This document shows, piece by piece, positions 3,030 to 43,078 of a DNA stretch of 64,000 nucleotides (its first letter is position 1; each line of letters starts with the position of its first letter). The notes under the pieces were generated by a model. That model was given only the letters and a program-made list of their open reading frames with translations, had not been told where the DNA came from and did not search any database. The position numbers and the translations under genes were made by a program. Source of the stretch: a virus; IMG/VR virus record IMGVR_UViG_3300025929_000003, positions 4,421-68,420 of that record; one strand, written 5' to 3'.

Positions 3030-5129
3030 CTACACAGATTGCATGACGAACCACTCTGCCTCTTTGGATGTTTCTTCGTGGGTCGGCAACCTACTAAATT
3101 TCTTTTCACAGGCGATTAAACACCATCCCATGGCGCAAAGTAGGTCAAATTTCGTTCTGTTCTTTTTATTCCCCTCCAATAACTGTAATATGATGCGTTT
3201 ATGCTTCAAAGCGTTGCTGTACATCATCACATAGTGGGCAATTGCCATGAAATACTGGTCAATGGTGTCGGTAGTAGCGGGAGTGCCAATCTGGTTGGTC
3301 GTAGAATACCTTGACTTTTCATCCATAGTACTTTCGGGACGTGCCATTAAAAACTCTGCATATCCTCGTTGCCTAAAGTGTTTTTTGATGGCTTGCTTAT
3401 TGTTTTCCACATTCATCTGTGTGCCATAGTAAACGTGCATCATCAGCATATCCTCAAAAAATACATCGGGGTCATCCTCACGGCAAAGGTAATCACATAC
3501 TGGCTGCTTAGAACGCCATTCCCAGCCCCAATCTATAGGTGCACCGTCTTGTATTTTAGCGCCATCCTCATTGTCGTCAAACAATCGCATGATAACACCC
3601 GCACCTTTAGACGCTCTCGCTTGGTCAACTACTGAATCGTGCTCATAAGGGTCACAACCACCCCTAAACTTATGAAGATTACCGGGATATCGTTGACCGC
3701 CTGAGTTTATGACATTGTTATCCTCTCCGTCTTTGAGCAATTGTGATACTTCAAACTTACCATTCTCATCTTCCAAAAATATCACACGACTATCAGGGGT
3801 ACCACCTGACCAAATGAAGTTACCGCGCACCGTCCATTCCTTTTCTTCAAAGCCATAGGATGCCGGGAAGTTCAGGCGCTTTAGAATATCGGTTAGTCGC
3901 TCGATATTAAATGCAGATTGTGAACCCGAGGGTGTTAAAGCATCTTCAATCGTGCGTGGCGTCTTACGCAGCAAGTCCGTAATCATGGTGAATTTCTTGC
4001 GCTTCTTTAAGTTTTCGATTTGGTTCTCCAAAAACTCTTTTGCCGCTTCTTTCATCGGGAAGCCAAACTCATCTTCTTCCGCTGCATCTTCGTAGGAGAT
4101 AAAGATGGCATATAGCCCTGTTACCGTTCTACCGTTCTCATCACGCTCATCGGGGTTACTGTCTTTGTAAAACTCGCCCACTTCTTCAATCTGTTCGTCG
4201 TTTACTTCCTCAATAGTAGTTTCACCCCACCCCTTACCGACAATAAGTGCCCCGTGGTTATAGTGCATACAGGGTTTTACTTTATCCCAATTCTTTACCA
4301 AACTCATTTTTTCCAGTTTCCCAGCCTCGTTGATAATCCAGCGGTTCAATTCAACCCTATCATAAGCGCCAGCGATAGACGCCTGAAAATCTATCCATGA
4401 GTTCATCTCAATCTCAGAGTACACCACTTCTTCTTCTTCGACGCTTGCAGCACGTTCCCGCACCTTTTTATCGGTGTTTACCGAAGATGGGTACATATAC
4501 TCCAACTTATCCTTTGGCATTTCAGAGCCGCGGTGTACGGGCTTCATAAACCATATGAGGTGCTTGTTAGCAAAGGCAATACGGTCAAAGTTTTCGGCAG
4601 CGGCGTCATCATTTTTGGACTGCATACCACCACGGGTATTCCTTACCCTGCTAATAAATTCCAGCATTAAACCCAAGGTGAACTCAGTTTTACCGATACG
4701 CCGTGGCCCGACAAGGAAAGCGCCGTAGCTGTTAATGTCGCGCACCACCATGTCCCAAAACAAAAAAATCAGACACTGAATGTATCTGAAACCAGGCTGG
4801 CTACTATTACTCATCATTGTCCAGTAGTTCAAGAACCAGTAATAGGGGCCGGTGATGTAGATGGGCTTGCCGTTTATCAAAATCCAAATACCGTTATAGC
4901 GTTTGTGGTATTCGCCTTTGATAAATTCCTGTTCTTCGGGGGTGATTTGGCTTTTGTACTTGCGGAGAGACTTTGGTATTTCTGTTTTGCGAAATTTTTG
5001 TTCTGCTGAGGGTAATCCGTAGTTCACCATTTCTGATTTTGGTGGCATGACAGGCAGCGGGATAGTGTACTTATCCAGTTTGATATAGCCTGATGGCTTG
5101 CTGTAATCAAGGTTATATAGTTTTCCCAT
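3030..5129 (-). CDS. terL: Terminase large subunit
   Basis: Walker A-like VGPRRIGKT, Walker B-like WIINEAGK, nuclease-domain motifs GGCDPY and FDLLCAMG. Confidence 0.85.
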   Translation of the reverse strand: MGKLYNLDYSKPSGYIKLDKYTIPLPVMPPKSEMVNYGLPSAEQKFRKTEIPKSLRKYKSQITPEEQEFIKGEYHKRYNGIWILINGKPIYITGPYYWFLNYWTMMSNSSQPGFRYIQCLIFLFWDMVVRDINSYGAFLVGPRRIGKTEFTLGLMLEFISRVRNTRGGMQSKNDDAAAENFDRIAFANKHLIWFMKPVHRGSEMPKDKLEYMYPSSVNTDKKVRERAASVEEEEVVYSEIEMNSWIDFQASIAGAYDRVELNRWIINEAGKLEKMSLVKNWDKVKPCMHYNHGALIVGKGWGETTIEEVNDEQIEEVGEFYKDSNPDERDENGRTVTGLYAIFISYEDAAEEDEFGFPMKEAAKEFLENQIENLKKRKKFTMITDLLRKTPRTIEDALTPSGSQSAFNIERLTDILKRLNFPASYGFEEKEWTVRGNFIWSGGTPDSRVIFLEDENGKFEVSQLLKDGEDNNVINSGGQRYPGNLHKFRGGCDPYEHDSVVDQARASKGAGVIMRLFDDNEDGAKIQDGAPIDWGWEWRSKQPVCDYLCREDDPDVFFEDMLMMHVYYGTQMNVENNKQAIKKHFRQRGYAEFLMARPESTMDEKSRYSTTNQIGTPATTDTIDQYFMAIAHYVMMYSNALKHKRIILQLLEGNKKNRTKFDLLCAMGWCLIACEKKFSRLPTHEETSKEAEWFVMQSV

Positions 5130-16979: not shown

Positions 16980-17436
16980 TAATAGTTGTCCCTATAGACA
17001 TTTTATTTATTTTAAAGAGTATACGCCTCAAGTCCATTTATCAAAAAATTTTATTATACCGTTTTTTAAACCACTGTTTTAGCATTATGTAGCGGAAGTG
17101 ATGCAGTAACCGCCCAAAAGACGGGGGTGGGTCTTCCGGTTTTAAATCACGTTTACTCAAGGCGGGTACCCTCGGATAAAAAGTATTTCTCACCAGCGGC
17201 AAGCAGACCGGCAGAGACGCAACCAACACGCACACGCGCAAAGCTGTTTAGGCAATAGACGCTAAGCAGAGGGGCACAGCAAGGCTTATCAACCAACCTA
17301 TACGCACAACCCATTTGCAAAAGCGGATAGTATTACGTTGCTTTGTATCGCACTACGACAAGCACTCTTGCAAAATACCTTTTTTAAGTTACATTTGATT
17401 TAAGGCTTGTTTTAGGCGATTTAAGACACTTTGTTT

Positions 17437-37967: not shown

Positions 37968-38240
37968 ATGAAAACAGCAGTAAAATCAAATGTTGAATTT
38001 CTAATAAACGTACAATTGACAGAGATTGAAGCGAGAGCTCTTGACGCAATTGTCGGATATGGCATAAAACCGTTTTTAGAAGTTTTTTATAAAAGCTTAG
38101 GGCAATCTTATTTGAAAGCACACGAAGACGGTGCAAAAACCCTGTTTGAGCATGTTAGAGCAGATTTAAGCCAGCAGTTACATAATATCGATGAAGCGCG
38201 GGCGGCTATAAATAAAATTAACGTTATCAACCCTATTTAA
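37968..38240 (+). CDS. Hypothetical protein
   Basis: LTEIEARALDAIVGYG..PFLEVFY. Confidence 0.65.
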   Translation: MKTAVKSNVEFLINVQLTEIEARALDAIVGYGIKPFLEVFYKSLGQSYLKAHEDGAKTLFEHVRADLSQQLHNIDEARAAINKINVINPI

Positions 38241-38253
38241 CCCCCACCAAATC

Positions 38254-38697
38254 ATGCAAACAAAAGAGCAAAGCATTTTCATGTCCCAATATTTATGGCA
38301 AAAAGTATTTATATCGCCAAAAGAAAAGTTTAACCCAGTATTATTAACACCGCAGGACTTAGAGTTTAGAGTTCCTGAATTTGGAGGCTATCTACAACTC
38401 CGCAGTATAGAGCAATTGACTGATGAGGAAATAACTGAATTGATGTACAGTATCGGTTTGCGCTGGCCTGAAATTGACAGCAAGGACGACGATAGTATAT
38501 TAATAGTTGATGACAGCTATTCTGTAGGGCTATACTTTGATGGAACTGTGGTTATGTACAAAGGTCGCGGAATGCAACGCAAGCCTTATTGGAATGACAT
38601 TAAGGCGTTGTACGATGGTTTGATACAATTAGGCGTGTGCCTATCAAAAGAAGCCATAACAAAAGGCTGGGCTGTCATAAAGGAGGATGGGGTATGA
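38254..38697 (+). CDS. Hypothetical protein
   Basis: 147 aa, LQLRSIEQLTDEEI. Confidence 0.65.
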   Translation: MQTKEQSIFMSQYLWQKVFISPKEKFNPVLLTPQDLEFRVPEFGGYLQLRSIEQLTDEEITELMYSIGLRWPEIDSKDDDSILIVDDSYSVGLYFDGTVVMYKGRGMQRKPYWNDIKALYDGLIQLGVCLSKEAITKGWAVIKEDGV

Positions 38698-38918
38698 GAT
38701 TCGACTACGATAAATTTGCTAAAGCAATTAAAGCTAAAATGTACAGGCCAGTAGAGGGTTATCGTCCTAATGGTGTACGTTATTGGGCTAATCAAATTGG
38801 CATCAGTAGCGCAACATTATCCCGCGTAACCAATGGTAAATGCGCCGATCTTGATACCACATTAAAAATATGTACCTGGCTTGAAATTGAAATAGAGCAC
38901 TTTATTAACCCCCTCTAA
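38694..38918 (+). CDS. XRE-family HTH regulator
   Basis: RYWANQIGISSATLSRVTNG...DTTLKICTWL. Confidence 0.85.
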   Translation: MRFDYDKFAKAIKAKMYRPVEGYRPNGVRYWANQIGISSATLSRVTNGKCADLDTTLKICTWLEIEIEHFINPL

Positions 38919-38946
38919 GTGGTAACAATATATTACTTGGGACAAG

Positions 38947-39126
38947 TTAATTTTCAAAAACGCTATTGTAAACCTCAAATATCTTTTTTCCTACATCATC
39001 AGGTAAGTTCTTTTCAAGTATCATAAACTGTGGTTCATCTCCATTCCAAAAATGAAGGTCAACATGGTCTAATGAAAGTGCTTTTAACGTTGCTTTTACA
39101 GCTAACTCTTTTTCATAGAAGTTCAT
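38947..39126 (-). CDS. Small hypothetical protein (59 aa)
   Basis: Hand-found MNFYEKELAVKATL...VFEN. Confidence 0.45.
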   Translation of the reverse strand: MNFYEKELAVKATLKALSLDHVDLHFWNGDEPQFMILEKNLPDDVGKKIFEVYNSVFEN

Positions 39127-39344
39127 AAATTCCAGTGCGGTTTTTGGTAGATGTAACGTTCATCTATACGCACTATATAAAAGTATATTTTTTATTCAGG
39201 TAAAAAAGGGCTAATATTCGCCCTATGATTTCGATATTAAGCGGATATTTAAAAGTGTTTATATTTATTTAGATTTGTCTAAAAATAAAATTAGCTTCAT
39301 TTAAATTTTGAAATGTAACTAATTTGTACGTTATTCGTATAAAA

Positions 39345-39535
39345 CAGGAAAGCCCACCTTTAGGGTGGGCTACTTCAAATGGTGCGCAACGTCATTGTTC
39401 CTGCTTAACTTTGCGATTACTGGCGGCTTCTATCTCATTTCGGGTAATGAGCCGAACATAGTTCCCGCAACGCTCATGAGGTCTCCGCTATCTCGGTCTG
39501 TCGGACTACTTCACCCACGCAGTTAAGTATCTTAT
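39345..39535. ncRNA. Candidate multi-junction structured RNA flanked by opposing terminators
   Basis: CTTAACT-GCG closing stem, TCCG/CGGA, GCGG/CCGC, GAAC/GTTC, CTCATT/AATGAG; hairpins at 39351-39371 and 39538-39560. Confidence 0.55.
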
Positions 39536-39537
39536 TA

Positions 39538-39560
39538 GGCGGGTAAAACCGCCTTTTTTT
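39538..39560 (+). terminator. Intrinsic terminator
   Basis: GGCGG-GTAAAA-CCGCC followed by T7. Confidence 0.7.
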
Positions 39561-39993
39561 ATTTGTTTTTCCAAGACAATTTGCCATAGCGATATTTCCC
39601 ATTACTGTCTGTCTTTTTGCTTTTATAATAAACCTTGTTATCCTTGCCTCCTAAAACTTTTGATAAGTTCTGTATGACCGCCGTTTTATCCTTCGCACGC
39701 TCGTCTTCATATTTTTCTATTAACAAATTATAGGTTTCACCAGTAGATAATTCTACTTGTTCCACATCAAAAATGTAATCTACTCGTTTATTCAACGTCT
39801 TAATTGTATGCCATACGTTAACGTCTTGTTGAATTTTTGTAATGAGGTTCACGCCCTCAAATAAAGGCGTTTGAGAGCCTATTGGAAAGGTAGTAATTTT
39901 GATAGGCGTTGTAGTGGTTAGAAACTTTATTCGGTCGTTGATATATTTTTTTTTCTCCAATAAAGTACTAATGGTCTTTTCTGTTTCCACCAA
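39559..39993 (-). CDS. AT-rich basic hypothetical protein
   Basis: 144 aa, isolated, directly upstream of the structured RNA. Confidence 0.55.
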   Translation of the reverse strand: MVETEKTISTLLEKKKYINDRIKFLTTTTPIKITTFPIGSQTPLFEGVNLITKIQQDVNVWHTIKTLNKRVDYIFDVEQVELSTGETYNLLIEKYEDERAKDKTAVIQNLSKVLGGKDNKVYYKSKKTDSNGKYRYGKLSWKNK

Positions 39994-40142
39994 TTCTTTT
40001 CTGTAACTATTGACTAATAAATCAAGTTCCGCTTGTTCTAATAAAAGACGTCCAGTTAACGTTGGGTATTCTGCATGGCAAAAAAAACGTATTCGAGAAC
40101 CGCCAAATCAACTATTCCACACGTAAAACAAGTAATCAATAT

Positions 40143-40439
40143 ATGAAACGTAAAACTATCATCACCGCCCTCCTTACTGTAGCAGTAGGCACGGCTTTCG
40201 CGCAGACACAACAAGCGCCCCAGAAACAATTACCACCATCTGTCCACATCGAACTGTCGGACAAGCAAGTTATTCGCTTAGATAGCCTTATTCAGCGTTT
40301 AACGCAGCAGATAGACAGCAAAGCGGTTACCGCCAACATCTTTTCTGTGGTTGCACCTATTTACAGCCAGATTGAGGCGCAGATGGTGCCCGCGGTTAAG
40401 CCCGAAGAAAAGAAACCTACGCAAGCTAAAAAACCTTAA
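40143..40439 (+). CDS. Secreted/periplasmic protein with Sec signal peptide
   Basis: MKRKTIITALLTVAVGTAFA|Q. Confidence 0.7.
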   Translation: MKRKTIITALLTVAVGTAFAQTQQAPQKQLPPSVHIELSDKQVIRLDSLIQRLTQQIDSKAVTANIFSVVAPIYSQIEAQMVPAVKPEEKKPTQAKKP

Positions 40440-40471
40440 CTTTAATCAACCAATTTAATTTAACCCCACAA

Positions 40472-40687
40472 ATGAACACACAACCAACTTTAAAACACAA
40501 GTGCGTACAGGTTTCGGATAACTTCCATATCCTGTACGTCCAACAATTCTTCTTAGGATGCATTGCTTATTGGTGTAAGGTACGTGACTTGCCTTACAAT
40601 CATTGGGATACCATACGGGTCACGGCGAAGTTGGACGATGTGGAGTTTGTGGACAGGAGAAAACGTAAATATTCATTTTTAAAATAA
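40472..40687 (+). CDS. Hypothetical protein
   Basis: 71-aa ORF. Confidence 0.5.
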   Translation: MNTQPTLKHKCVQVSDNFHILYVQQFFLGCIAYWCKVRDLPYNHWDTIRVTAKLDDVEFVDRRKRKYSFLK

Positions 40688-40692
40688 GCATC

Positions 40693-41145
40693 ATGTCAGT
40701 AATCGAAACAGTACTAAAATCAATCGCCACTTTCATCAGCAAGTTGGCGGGATGGGTCAAAACCACCACCTCGGATGGCACCACAATCGCCAATGAAATC
40801 AAAACCATTATCGACAACCCAGCATGGGACGTTGCCGTATCGTTCACCGCTACCAATGTAGATAACCAAGCCTTAGCGATGTTAAGGAACTGGTTAGCCG
40901 CCTACCTGATAGATAGCAAAATCGTGTCCTCAGCGACCGTAGAATTGAATGATATCTTTAAGGAAGCCTCTGATGCCATCAGTAAAATGGAGATGCCTGA
41001 GGCGAAGATTAACACCCTAAACGGGATAGCGGCTTATGCCAACGTGAAGTCAGCAGAATTGGATGGGAAGACTATACCCATGGAGACAGCGGTAAGTATT
41101 CAGCAATCCGCCTATCATCACCCTGAGTTGTTGGAAGTAAAATAA
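40693..41145 (+). CDS. Hypothetical helical protein
   Basis: 150-aa ORF. Confidence 0.65.
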   Translation: MSVIETVLKSIATFISKLAGWVKTTTSDGTTIANEIKTIIDNPAWDVAVSFTATNVDNQALAMLRNWLAAYLIDSKIVSSATVELNDIFKEASDAISKMEMPEAKINTLNGIAAYANVKSAELDGKTIPMETAVSIQQSAYHHPELLEVK

Positions 41146-41199
41146 TTTAAAAATCAAACTTAAAACCTCTCGATATATAAGGTTAATCGAACAATAAAA

Positions 41200-41475
41200 A
41201 TGGAATTACCGAGTAACTTTCAAATCGGGGATAATTGTGAATTTATCCCAATGGCAAAGCAATTATCTGCTGATTGTATATCAAACGAACCCCGTGACGG
41301 TAAAATTGTAGCAGTAAGATTTACAGAAGCAAAAATCTTCTACGATATCTTTGATATTTATTATGCTAAAATCTATAAAAACGTAGATAGTTCAAAAGTA
41401 TTTAGATACACTTTCGCAAATCTTCCTCACTCTGAGGAAACCACCCCTGAGCCTTTAATCACACAAAGCAAATAA
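41200..41475 (+). CDS. Hypothetical SH3-like beta protein
   Basis: FQIGD.C.F...GKIVAVRF...YD. Confidence 0.55.
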   Translation: MELPSNFQIGDNCEFIPMAKQLSADCISNEPRDGKIVAVRFTEAKIFYDIFDIYYAKIYKNVDSSKVFRYTFANLPHSEETTPEPLITQSK

Positions 41476-41504
41476 AGCAAAGAAATAGCCTAAAGAGAGC
41501 ATTC

Positions 41505-41540
41505 AGGGCGGTCAACTCAAAAAGTAGCCGCCCTTTTTTT
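41505..41540 (+). terminator. Intrinsic terminator
   Basis: AGGGCGG...CCGCCCT followed by T tract. Confidence 0.7.
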
Positions 41541-41850
41541 ATTGTTTGTCATCAACAATCTTTACACCAAACATCTTGCTAATACCCTTAACCACTGGCG
41601 TAGCAAATAAAGTAAAGAAGTAAAATATGTGCTGAGTAAATTCAGTGTTGAATATCTTATCAGCCACAATCCACGCTAAAAAACTGGTCGTAACGATAAG
41701 ATAAATGTCAAAAGCTGCATTTGCCCATTTAGGAGTCGGTAGACTAACCGCAGCCAGCCCAAATGTTGTTGTAGTTGGGTCTACCTTTTTGGCGTCTTGC
41801 GTGTTTGCTGGCTCTGTGCCCGGTAGTGGTGTTTCGTCTTGATTTGCCAT
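41539..41850 (-). CDS. Holin-like membrane protein
   Basis: Two TM helices, basic C-terminus, immediately after the endolysin. Confidence 0.55.
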   Translation of the reverse strand: MANQDETPLPGTEPANTQDAKKVDPTTTTFGLAAVSLPTPKWANAAFDIYLIVTTSFLAWIVADKIFNTEFTQHIFYFFTLFATPVVKGISKMFGVKIVDDKQ

Positions 41851-41852
41851 AA

Positions 41853-42491
41853 TTATACAATGTTTGCTAATTTATTTAATTCTTCTTTACTGCCCATGAA
41901 ATAATTGAGGTCTAAACCGCCGCCCTTAATAGCGCCACCAAAAGTCCCAAATTGGCTGTACTGCCAAAAATCAAGTTTAGTGTACCCTTTGGGTAACCCC
42001 GGTTGGGTTGACTGATAGGAAGCTAACCATAATGGATTATTAGGCCATGAATGGTCTTTAAGATAGTCCCTAAAGAAATTCTTATAGCTATATATCATTG
42101 GCTTGCGACCTGTAGCCTTTTCAATAATCAACAACCAGTCGGTTATTAATTGAATAAAGGCATCTTTATCTTTCGTAATACCACTATTTAGCGATGCTGG
42201 CACCTGATCTTCCACATCGAGCACAGGCGGTAGCACCCCCGGCTTTGAAAAGTCTATGCCGAACGATAAAAAGTTATCGGCCTGTTTTTGTGCACTATCA
42301 ACTGCAGTCAGAAAGTGATAAGCCCCCCTATATAGGTTTGTGGTCTTAAGATGTTGCCAATTCTCATTAAACTTTGGGTCTCTGTATCCAGCGCCTTGAG
42401 TTGCTTTGCAGAACACAAACTTAATATCGGGCGAAAGATTAGCCCATGGTACGGGGCTGTTGAAGTGCGAAATGTCACAACCTTTTATCAT
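41853..42491 (-). CDS. GH25 muramidase endolysin
   Basis: GCDISHF, FVFCKATQG, RGAYHF, LDVED, FWQYS, LDLNYF. Confidence 0.92.
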   Translation of the reverse strand: MIKGCDISHFNSPVPWANLSPDIKFVFCKATQGAGYRDPKFNENWQHLKTTNLYRGAYHFLTAVDSAQKQADNFLSFGIDFSKPGVLPPVLDVEDQVPASLNSGITKDKDAFIQLITDWLLIIEKATGRKPMIYSYKNFFRDYLKDHSWPNNPLWLASYQSTQPGLPKGYTKLDFWQYSQFGTFGGAIKGGGLDLNYFMGSKEELNKLANIV

Positions 42492-42562
42492 AATAACGTT
42501 TTATTTTAAAACAAACTTTTTTGGTAGATAAATAAATTTAACAAATATACTATTTTTGACAT

Positions 42563-43078
42563 ATGGAAGTTTTTTTTGATATAAATGGATTTGATAACTA
42601 TCAATTGTCTAAAAGCGGCTTGGTAATAAGTAAAAAGTCTAATCGGCTTTTAAAATGCGGGTTAATGGCTAAAAGAAAGGGGACATCGTCTGGATATTGG
42701 GGTTTTTTGTTAAAATCTTCTTTGACTGGAAAATTCCAAACACAATATATTCATCGATTATTAGCCACTCACTTTATTCCCAACCCCGATAATAAGCCAC
42801 AAGTTAACCATATTAATGGAATTAAGACCGATAATAGGTTAGAAAACTTAGAGTGGTGCACTTCCAAAGAAAACATTATACATGCATGGGAAAGCGGGTT
42901 GTGTAATACTCATTCCATAAAAAATGGGACTTCACTAATAAAACCTTGTAAAATAAATGGATTAGATTTTCCATCTATCAATGCCGCGTCCTGTTACTTT
43001 AATATATCTTACTATGCTTTGAGTTCTTACGTTAATCATGGCAAGAAATTAAAAAAATACAAGGCTTTTTTTAATTAA
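42563..43078 (+). CDS. HNH homing endonuclease, inverted inside the lysis cassette
   Basis: [37 protein letters not shown]; AT-rich; TATTTTTG box just upstream. Confidence 0.9.

Follow-up and report, generated by a model that had tools for sequence, protein, structure and literature searches.

The DNA considered here is a stretch of 64,000 nucleotides (nt) from the virus record IMGVR_UViG_3300025929_000003 of IMG/VR, a record of 71,233 bp that has direct terminal repeats and is rated complete. The stretch, which corresponds to bases 4421–68420 of the record, is referred to as the window. Positions 39341–40111 of the window are best explained, with a probability of a little under 0.4, as a self-contained accessory ('moron') cassette on the minus strand that derives from a mobile element. 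It would consist of a gene for a predicted winged-helix protein, followed by a GC-rich spacer that is transcribed as the 3′ untranslated region (UTR) of that gene and, probably, in the antisense direction as well. For the phage alone, this is a modest accessory gene, possibly damaged, with ordinary convergent terminators. Comparison with homologous loci adds that a very rare protein family travels with interchangeable genes for RNAs shaped like transfer RNA (tRNA) and with DDE transposases in Bacteroidota, and that in the phage copy gene, hairpin, slot and hairpin follow in the same order while the content of the slot is different.

The primase-helicase of the phage is closest to those of Riemerella, Cellulophaga, Tenacibaculum and Flavobacterium phages, at 32–39% identity. 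Exact copies of TAnnTTTG, the −7 promoter consensus of Bacteroidetes (PMC7366714), stand close 5′ of several gene starts, with intergenic examples at 17390, 25553, 42542 and 42551; over the whole window the number of such boxes is that expected by chance (80 observed and 76 expected). Because of the primase-helicase similarity and the boxes at gene starts, the host of the phage is almost certainly a member of the Bacteroidota. The early genes lie on the plus strand, from approximately 17.4 kb to 38918, and the late and lysis genes lie on the minus strand from 41539 on. The cassette is found between these two arms, among small genes of alternating orientation.

The accessory protein and its gene

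The gene was annotated as a minus-strand open reading frame (ORF) of 144 amino acids (aa) at 39559–39993, with a TTG start, and homology to a family of helix plus winged-helix proteins extends the coding region to 39559–40059. An earlier note on this DNA, made from the letters alone, had described the product as an orphan basic protein encoded by AT-rich DNA. The protein is indeed basic, with an isoelectric point of 9.48, and the ORF has a GC content of 33.8% as compared to 41.8% for the window. It is not, however, an orphan: five other clusters (E 1.8e-14 to 9.4e-5) were recovered when HMMER was run exhaustively against 1.84 billion cluster representatives, and a profile search of a 5.8-billion set added one further cluster, for a total of approximately seven clusters among 15 billion proteins. 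By the measure of these searches, the family is real but very rare. Its members come from Mucilaginibacter sp. 21P (WP_219125566.1), one Mucilaginibacter metagenome-assembled genome, three Joint Genome Institute (JGI) metagenome contigs and two Logan contigs. The Logan contigs, which encode members P0002 and P0004, are phage-sized (77,383 bp and 61,034 bp, respectively). The gene is present in one of 401 sampled Sphingobacteriaceae genomes and in two of 229 Mucilaginibacter genomes, the second of these being a marginal match, while homologues are absent from IMG/VR and from the cultured-phage records of INPHARED. No model of Pfam, PHROG, NCBIfam or PADLOC matches the family members, apart from a marginal match of one member to LmuB (PADLOC, E 0.021), and signatures of nucleases, recombinases and toxins are absent from the accessory protein.

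AlphaFold gave concordant models for P0003 and the window protein: each has a long N-terminal helix, a disordered linker and a confidently predicted C-terminal winged helix, for which the predicted local distance difference test (pLDDT) is 82–90 in the P0003 model and 77–93 in that of the window protein. In P0003, helices span residues 86–96, 103–113 and 122–134 and strands span residues 143–149 and 155–159, and the window protein has the same layout. Three bundled helices, one of them a recognition helix, and then a beta wing of two strands define the winged-helix fold, and the models have this arrangement. The best Foldseek matches of the domain are Fur and forkhead proteins (E 0.02–0.1), and VIA-align gave Z scores of 8.5 for the H1 globular domain, 8.4 for FoxA2, 8.2 for Fur and 7.1–7.8 for the N-terminal domain of RNA polymerase delta. 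The C-terminal domain is therefore, as modeled, a member of the winged-helix class of nucleic-acid-binding folds, an assignment which is to fold class only and from which binding is predicted. The resemblance to the H1/forkhead, Fur and RNA polymerase delta (HARE-HTH) domains lies in the three-helix bundle and beta-hairpin wing, with Z of 7–8.5 over 70–76 residues. Unlike those domains, the phage domain has no sequence membership in Pfam, NCBIfam or PHROG, and the long N-terminal helix and disordered linker are specific to the family of the phage protein. The HARE-HTH profile PF05066 does not match any of seven members at E values up to 1; HARE-HTH occurs in 38% of the members of one protein-atlas feature neighbour, which is a lead only. 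The N-terminal helix is probably a dimerising coiled coil, and the protein is most likely a DNA-binding regulator, with binding predicted from the fold.

The 5′ end of the phage gene departs from that of its relatives. Upstream of the TTG at 39993 the reading frame stays open as far as 40107 but contains no ATG, GTG or further TTG, and similarity to the family continues for approximately 18–22 residues upstream of this annotated start. In a BLASTP comparison to P0003 (E 3e-29), the alignment begins 18 residues upstream of the TTG, and residue 1 of the family aligns with a TTA codon at 40057–40059. A candidate −7 box, TTGATTTG, with one mismatch to TAnnTTTG, was read on the minus strand at 40104–40111 and is the putative promoter of the accessory gene; in the homologous loci, exact boxes, TACCTTTG and TACTTTTG, stand at the corresponding position ahead of the ATG. 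In the phage, the only nearby ATG is at 40074–40076 and is the first to follow the candidate promoter. It opens a minus-strand frame of six codons (40056–40076; MQNTQR, stop) that is one base off the family frame. The 5′ end thus appears frameshifted or truncated, and the possibilities are a real frameshift, a one-base assembly error, or a truncation of approximately 22 residues with a start at the TTG or an adjacent GTG. Given such a 5′ end, the phage protein would start inside the N-terminal helix or the gene may be decaying. A truncated protein could still act, because P0004 is a natural family member of 88 aa that consists of the winged helix alone.

Convergent terminators and the spacer between them

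Intrinsic terminators were predicted by a scan for stem-loops that are rich in GC and run into a T tract on the transcribed strand, and the scan confirmed that the locus is bounded by terminators in both directions. The one that serves the minus strand is at 39341–39371, with an 8-bp stem (39371..39351, six GC pairs) followed by the T-rich sequence TTTCCTGTTTT. It is the first terminator 3′ of the accessory gene, as there is none on the minus strand from the stop codon (39559) to 39371, and the sequence beyond the gene, spacer included, is therefore expected to be transcribed as its 187-nt 3′ UTR. The terminator that serves the plus strand is at 39537–39565, with a 6-bp GC-rich stem (39537–39554) followed by T7, a tract that overlaps the accessory gene's stop codon on the minus strand. 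When read on the minus strand, this hairpin has no U tract. It is the sole plus-strand terminator found between 38500 and 40600, so that transcription of the plus strand is expected to cross the spacer and to end at the edge of the accessory gene.

The two terminators are crossed: the plus-strand one abuts the stop codon and the first minus-strand one lies 187 nt beyond it. Antisense transcription of the spacer is probable and could arise by read-through from the early arm or by initiation at an exact −7 box, TAGATTTG, on the plus strand at 39270–39277. This candidate promoter is located in intergenic DNA of 20% GC and would give a transcript of approximately 280 nt that ends at 39565; there is no TTG 17–20 nt upstream of the box and thus no good −33 element. 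In such an arrangement each terminator would protect the opposing transcription unit, and approximately 225 nt would be transcribed on both strands, with antisense control of the accessory gene as a possible consequence.

The spacer itself, 165 nt at 39372–39536, is non-coding and has a GC content of 47.9% (50.4% for 39400–39530), as compared to 19.8–25.9% in the flanking non-coding DNA. Within it, the earlier note had described a multi-junction RNA of approximately 135 nt, and the pairings that were listed are present. The closing helix is formed by CTTAAC (39404–39409), a TT bulge and TGCG (39412–39415), which pair with CGCA (39518–39521) and GTTAAG (39522–39527), and the domain so closed is 124 nt in length (39404–39527), somewhat smaller than had been thought. 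Inside it, the pairing of CTCATT (39434–39439) with AATGAG (39446–39451) excludes that of ATGAGC (39447–39452) with GCTCAT (39472–39477). The minus-strand terminator is also enclosed as had been proposed, by CAGGAA (39345–39350) and TTCCTG (39398–39403).

The multi-junction fold that these pairings were taken to define did not hold up. Each strand was folded separately and its minimum free energy was compared to that of dinucleotide shuffles. The z-scores for the plus and minus strands, respectively, are −0.98 and −0.43 for the closed domain of 124 nt, −0.98 and −0.12 for a 131-nt version of it, and −0.11 and +1.01 for the whole spacer. Ensemble diversity of the plus strand is ordinary, as 27% of shuffles are equally well defined, while the minus strand is worse than most shuffles. 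A longer stretch of 231 nt (39340–39570) has a z-score of −2.64, and this is due to the inclusion of the two terminator hairpins. The fold is no better than chance, and neither statistics nor comparison supports it.

At gathering scores, Rfam 15 has zero matches in the whole window; at E values up to 10, the interval 39150–39700 yields only look-alikes of the terminator hairpins (E 0.5–10), well under gathering scores, so that the Rfam search which had been suggested as a check returned no relevant family. The mark of a tRNA-like RNA was taken to be a 7-bp acceptor stem next to a T arm whose loop is of the GTTCRA type, together with detection by ARAGORN or by RF00005. ARAGORN finds zero tRNA genes in the window, RF00005 does not match the spacer region at E values up to 10, and no T-arm motif is visible on either strand of the spacer. 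Homologues of the spacer were sought by blastn in INPHARED, with an exact 24-mer and a pattern of conserved ends with a variable interior in IMG/VR, and by BLAST in five phage records that share the lysin gene of the window and in 401 Bacteroidia genomes; these searches yielded either nothing or short matches at chance level. The similarity of the spacer to window segment 28365–28549 is not above that of shuffles, and its complementarity to the rest of the window reaches 12 nt at most, which is chance level. A discrete functional RNA in the spacer is nevertheless possible, given its composition, the analogy with the slot of the relatives and the compactness of phage genomes.

The RNA slot in homologous loci and the origin of the cassette

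Four homologous loci are readable (L003, L004, L005 and L006/L007), and in all four a small tRNA or tRNA-like gene lies 3′ of the ORF, on the same strand and flanked by hairpins. After the stop codon the order is a hairpin with a conserved 18-nt loop, set between an A-run and a T-run; a spacer of approximately 30 nt; a tRNA-shaped gene of 71–72 nt; a conserved AT-rich hairpin made of TTACTTAC, a 7-nt loop and GTAAGTAA; and a DDE transposase gene, which is of the IS1595 type in L004 and of the IS1 type in L005 and L006. The RNA of L006 and L003 scores as a tRNA (55.7 bits against RF00005, above gathering) and is rejected by ARAGORN. Those of L004 and L005 have an acceptor stem and T arm, and a 5-bp stem with a 17-nt loop replaces the D and anticodon arms. 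None of these RNAs is related to the phage spacer.

The RNA slot appears to be exchangeable, because L005 and L006 are 91% identical over 1.8 kb, including the ORF, the flanking hairpins and the IS1-type transposase, and yet carry unrelated RNA genes. This suggests a cassette-like exchange of the RNA gene. The RNAs concerned are an armless tRNA-like RNA at L005:1208–1275 and, at L006:3456–3527, a tRNA of 72 nt whose anticodon stem contains an A-A mismatch.

One of the tRNA-like RNAs is also found apart from the ORF. L025, a 73-kb phage contig of IMG/VR, has an RNA of the L004 type, the hairpin and a fragment of an IS1595-type transposase, and it lacks a homologue of the ORF. The 71-nt RNAs of L004 and L025 differ from each other at four positions and no more, and these four make up two compensatory pair changes; RNAs of this type are thus real. 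Neither Rfam nor ARAGORN recognises them. In both copies (L004:4467–4537 and L025:7993–8063) the 7-bp acceptor stem contains G3-U70 and the ACCA end is encoded, and both are just upstream of an IS1595-type transposase gene. Judged from where they occur, the linkage of these RNAs to the transposase is no weaker than their linkage to the ORF. The earlier note would have given up its proposal if the RNA were not expressed and never linked to homologues of the ORF. An RNA gene does accompany the ORF, on the same strand and 3′ of it, in each of the four readable loci; what does not carry over is strict linkage, given L025, or any homology of the RNAs to the phage spacer.

The phage locus has the same layout as its relatives, namely stop codon, hairpin, non-coding segment and hairpin, and the distance from the stop codon to the second hairpin is approximately 210 nt in the phage versus 170–177 nt in the relatives. 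It differs from them in that the first hairpin is a plus-strand terminator, the second is a proper minus-strand terminator, and there is no transposase. As the position of the spacer matches the slot that holds interchangeable tRNA-like genes in the homologous cassettes, the spacer may be a fourth kind of RNA cargo.

Several further sequence elements recur in the relatives. A 10–12-nt motif (TCAGTCGCC, TCAGTCTCC or TCAATCGCC, then A) is present as a direct repeat, once before the ATG of the ORF and once in the loop of the hairpin that follows the stop codon. The approximate positions are L003:478–487 and 991–1000, L004:3920–3929 and 4413–4422, L005:645–657 and 1150–1161, and L006:2890–2901 and 3395–3406. 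Within each locus both copies are of the same variant, giving three co-varying haplotypes, and the motif could be a shared recognition or recombination site. No clear equivalent was seen in the phage. In addition, two copies of a 17-nt palindrome with the core GGTAAGTACC are found upstream of the ORF homologue in L004 (L004:3776–3828). This core is similar to the arms of the hairpin located ahead of the transposase gene, and the palindromes are possible operator sites for the winged-helix protein. Operator-like TACTTAC and TACTTGK motifs, which are repeated around the cassettes of the relatives, are not enriched in the window.

That the locus is an inserted accessory module is supported by three lines of evidence: the gene is rich in AT, phages that share the lysin lack it, and its only relatives either adjoin transposases of the IS1595 (L004) or IS1 (L005 and L006) type in Mucilaginibacter and soil contigs or sit on the two phage-sized contigs. 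For a mobile origin, the last two of these count together with the sparse occurrence of the gene in the sampled Sphingobacteriaceae and Mucilaginibacter genomes. The lysin (61–67% identity) and one further gene are all that five phage contigs, L008–L012, have in common with the window phage, and both the accessory ORF and the spacer are absent from them by BLAST.

In several respects the locus resembles known phage morons, which are accessory genes placed between conserved phage modules and transcribed independently, each from its own promoter to its own terminator. It contains a small, AT-rich gene of opposite orientation at a module junction, served by a separate candidate promoter and by an intrinsic terminator dedicated to it; the gene is missing from phages that share neighbouring genes; and its relatives are found in bacterial mobile DNA. 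It is unlike them in that no relative with an empty site was available by which to define the insertion, the ATG is out of frame, and the GC-rich 3′ segment before the terminator is, at 187 nt, unusually long. There is a second likeness to insertion sequence (IS) elements of the IS1595 and IS1 types with tRNA-like passengers, as the ORF homologues are directly followed by a tRNA or tRNA-like gene and a transposase, the Pfam domains of which are DDE_Tnp_IS1595 with Zn_ribbon_IS1595 or else DDE_Tnp_IS1. Unlike such elements, the phage copy lacks a transposase, a tRNA-like RNA and detectable terminal inverted repeats, and the element ends of the relatives were not located either; a 16-nt inverted-repeat candidate in L004 was rejected since it is inside the next ORF.

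Competing explanations and neighbouring features

A number of points weigh against the reading of 39341–40111 as an imported accessory cassette that is transcribed through its spacer. The −33 element is poor at both candidate promoters, and we infer both promoters and both transcripts from sequence patterns. The frameshift in the gene may be an assembly error. The winged-helix matches are middling (Z of approximately 8; Foldseek E 0.02–0.1) and indicate a fold class only. At the boundaries of the cassette in the phage there are no terminal inverted repeats or target duplication, and flanking inverted repeats of at least 15 nt are absent around the module within 38000–42600. There is no close syntenic phage with an empty site, the lysin-sharing phages being too distant. 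Finally, no homologue of the spacer was detected, its folding energy is not significant and it shows no features of a tRNA; it could be inert or decaying DNA.

The strongest competitor, possible but on balance unlikely, is that the spacer is a stand-alone small RNA (sRNA) gene. Here, a plus-strand sRNA of approximately 280 nt would extend from the 39270 box to the terminator at 39537–39565 and exert antisense control, in cis, over the accessory 3′ UTR; alternatively, a minus-strand RNA would be processed from the 3′ UTR and take the role that the tRNA-like RNAs have in the homologous cassettes. A GC island of 48–50% amid flanks of 20–26% GC would fit such a gene, as would the exact TAGATTTG box with no ATG-started ORF ahead of a strong plus-strand terminator, the somewhat better and more definite folding of the plus strand as compared to the minus strand, and the presence of RNA genes in the matching slot of four of four homologous loci. 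On the other hand, the fold z-scores are non-significant for both strands, the −33 box is weak, complementarity to the rest of the window does not exceed 12 nt, and there is neither an Rfam family nor a homologue in IMG/VR, INPHARED or the 401 Bacteroidia genomes. Moreover, termination of the early arm accounts equally well for the plus-strand terminator.

A canonical intergenic sRNA of Bacteroidota is transcribed from a sigma-ABfr promoter of its own, with TAnnTTTG at −7 and TTTG at −33, and ends at an intrinsic terminator. As a candidate sRNA, the spacer is similar to intergenic and 3′-UTR-derived sRNAs of this group (GibS and the sRNA classes of PMC7366714) in that a candidate TAnnTTTG promoter and an intrinsic terminator bracket a non-coding segment or, for the 3′-UTR-derived alternative, in that the spacer shares a terminator with its parental messenger RNA. 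Unlike them, it has no conservation, seed or target complementarity, or significant structure.

Doubtful to a slightly greater degree is the proposal that the spacer is functionless, that is, a decayed remnant of a donor RNA slot or of a coding fragment caught between convergent terminators, with the listed helices being chance pairings. Folding energy and ensemble definition that are within the distribution of shuffles are as this proposal would have them, there is no conservation to examine, and the damaged look of the adjacent gene at its 5′ end is consistent with a decaying cassette. However, phage genomes are compact, and decay in an AT-rich context does not predict 165 nt with a GC content above the genome mean in DNA of 20% GC. 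In addition, the slot in the relatives holds functional-looking RNAs, one of which has the two compensatory pair changes seen between L004 and L025.

A more ambitious reading, which we regard as improbable, is that the winged-helix protein and the variable slot RNA together form a mobile protein–RNA cargo module of Bacteroidota IS elements and phages. The protein would bind or regulate the slot RNA, whether tRNA, armless tRNA-like RNA or, in the phage, a new 124-nt multi-branch RNA, with the 10–12-nt motif as the recognition site. If the slot RNA were expressed and bound by the protein, a new mobile protein–RNA module would be defined, and it would offer a handle on why IS elements and phages of Bacteroidota carry odd tRNA-like cargo. 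If it is not expressed and bound, the locus is a routine moron.

It is very improbable that the plus strand of the spacer instead encodes a membrane peptide of 53 aa, similar to a type I toxin or a holin. The frame is open from 39323 to 39526, and from a GTG at 39365 to the stop at 39526 it would encode a peptide with a hydrophobic stretch of approximately 20 residues that ends 10 nt before the plus-strand terminator, which is directly 3′. Against this, there is no ATG, the GTG is inside a terminator hairpin, the peptide has no homologue, and the source collection has no gene call for the frame; furthermore, an open frame of 67 codons in 165–200 nt of 48% GC is not rare over six frames.

The inserted protein-plus-RNA module of the earlier note survives as an inserted accessory module, but its suggestion that ORF and RNA form a toxin–antitoxin pair or an RNA-guided effector is the least credible of all. 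Type I systems combine a small hydrophobic toxin with an overlapping antisense RNA, type III systems combine an endoribonuclease toxin with a tandem-repeat RNA antitoxin, and RNA-guided systems (TnpB/IscB omega RNA, IS110 bridge RNA and CRISPR) place a gene for a RuvC/HNH nuclease or DEDD recombinase beside the guide RNA. The suggestion has in its favour no more than that a protein gene lies next to a putative RNA, whereas the protein is a helix plus winged-helix protein of 144–164 aa with no nuclease, recombinase or toxin domain, RuvC/HNH and DEDD recombinase domains are absent from the 144–182-aa frame and its neighbours, there are no tandem antitoxin repeats, and the tRNA-like RNA of the relatives is also found without the ORF (L025).

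The surroundings of the proposed accessory cassette contain several further features. On its 3′ side, a minus-strand ORF of 59 aa (38947–39126) is a neighbour and a candidate member only, and it has no significant family match. Upstream of this ORF, at 39197–39224, is a second minus-strand terminator-like hairpin, with a stem at 39224..39207 and a T6 tail. The last early gene has its stop at 38918, and no plus-strand terminator is found 3′ of it before 39537; read-through from the early arm would run antisense over the 59-aa ORF and over both minus-strand terminator hairpins. On the other side, an ORF at 40693–41145 has one relative, which is 32% identical. Between this ORF and the cassette, and divergent from the accessory ORF, is a plus-strand gene (40143–40439) for a protein of 98 aa that has a typical Bacteroidota-style signal peptide and no family match. 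It would be only 66 nt from the accessory gene if the out-of-frame ATG at 40074–40076 were the true start.

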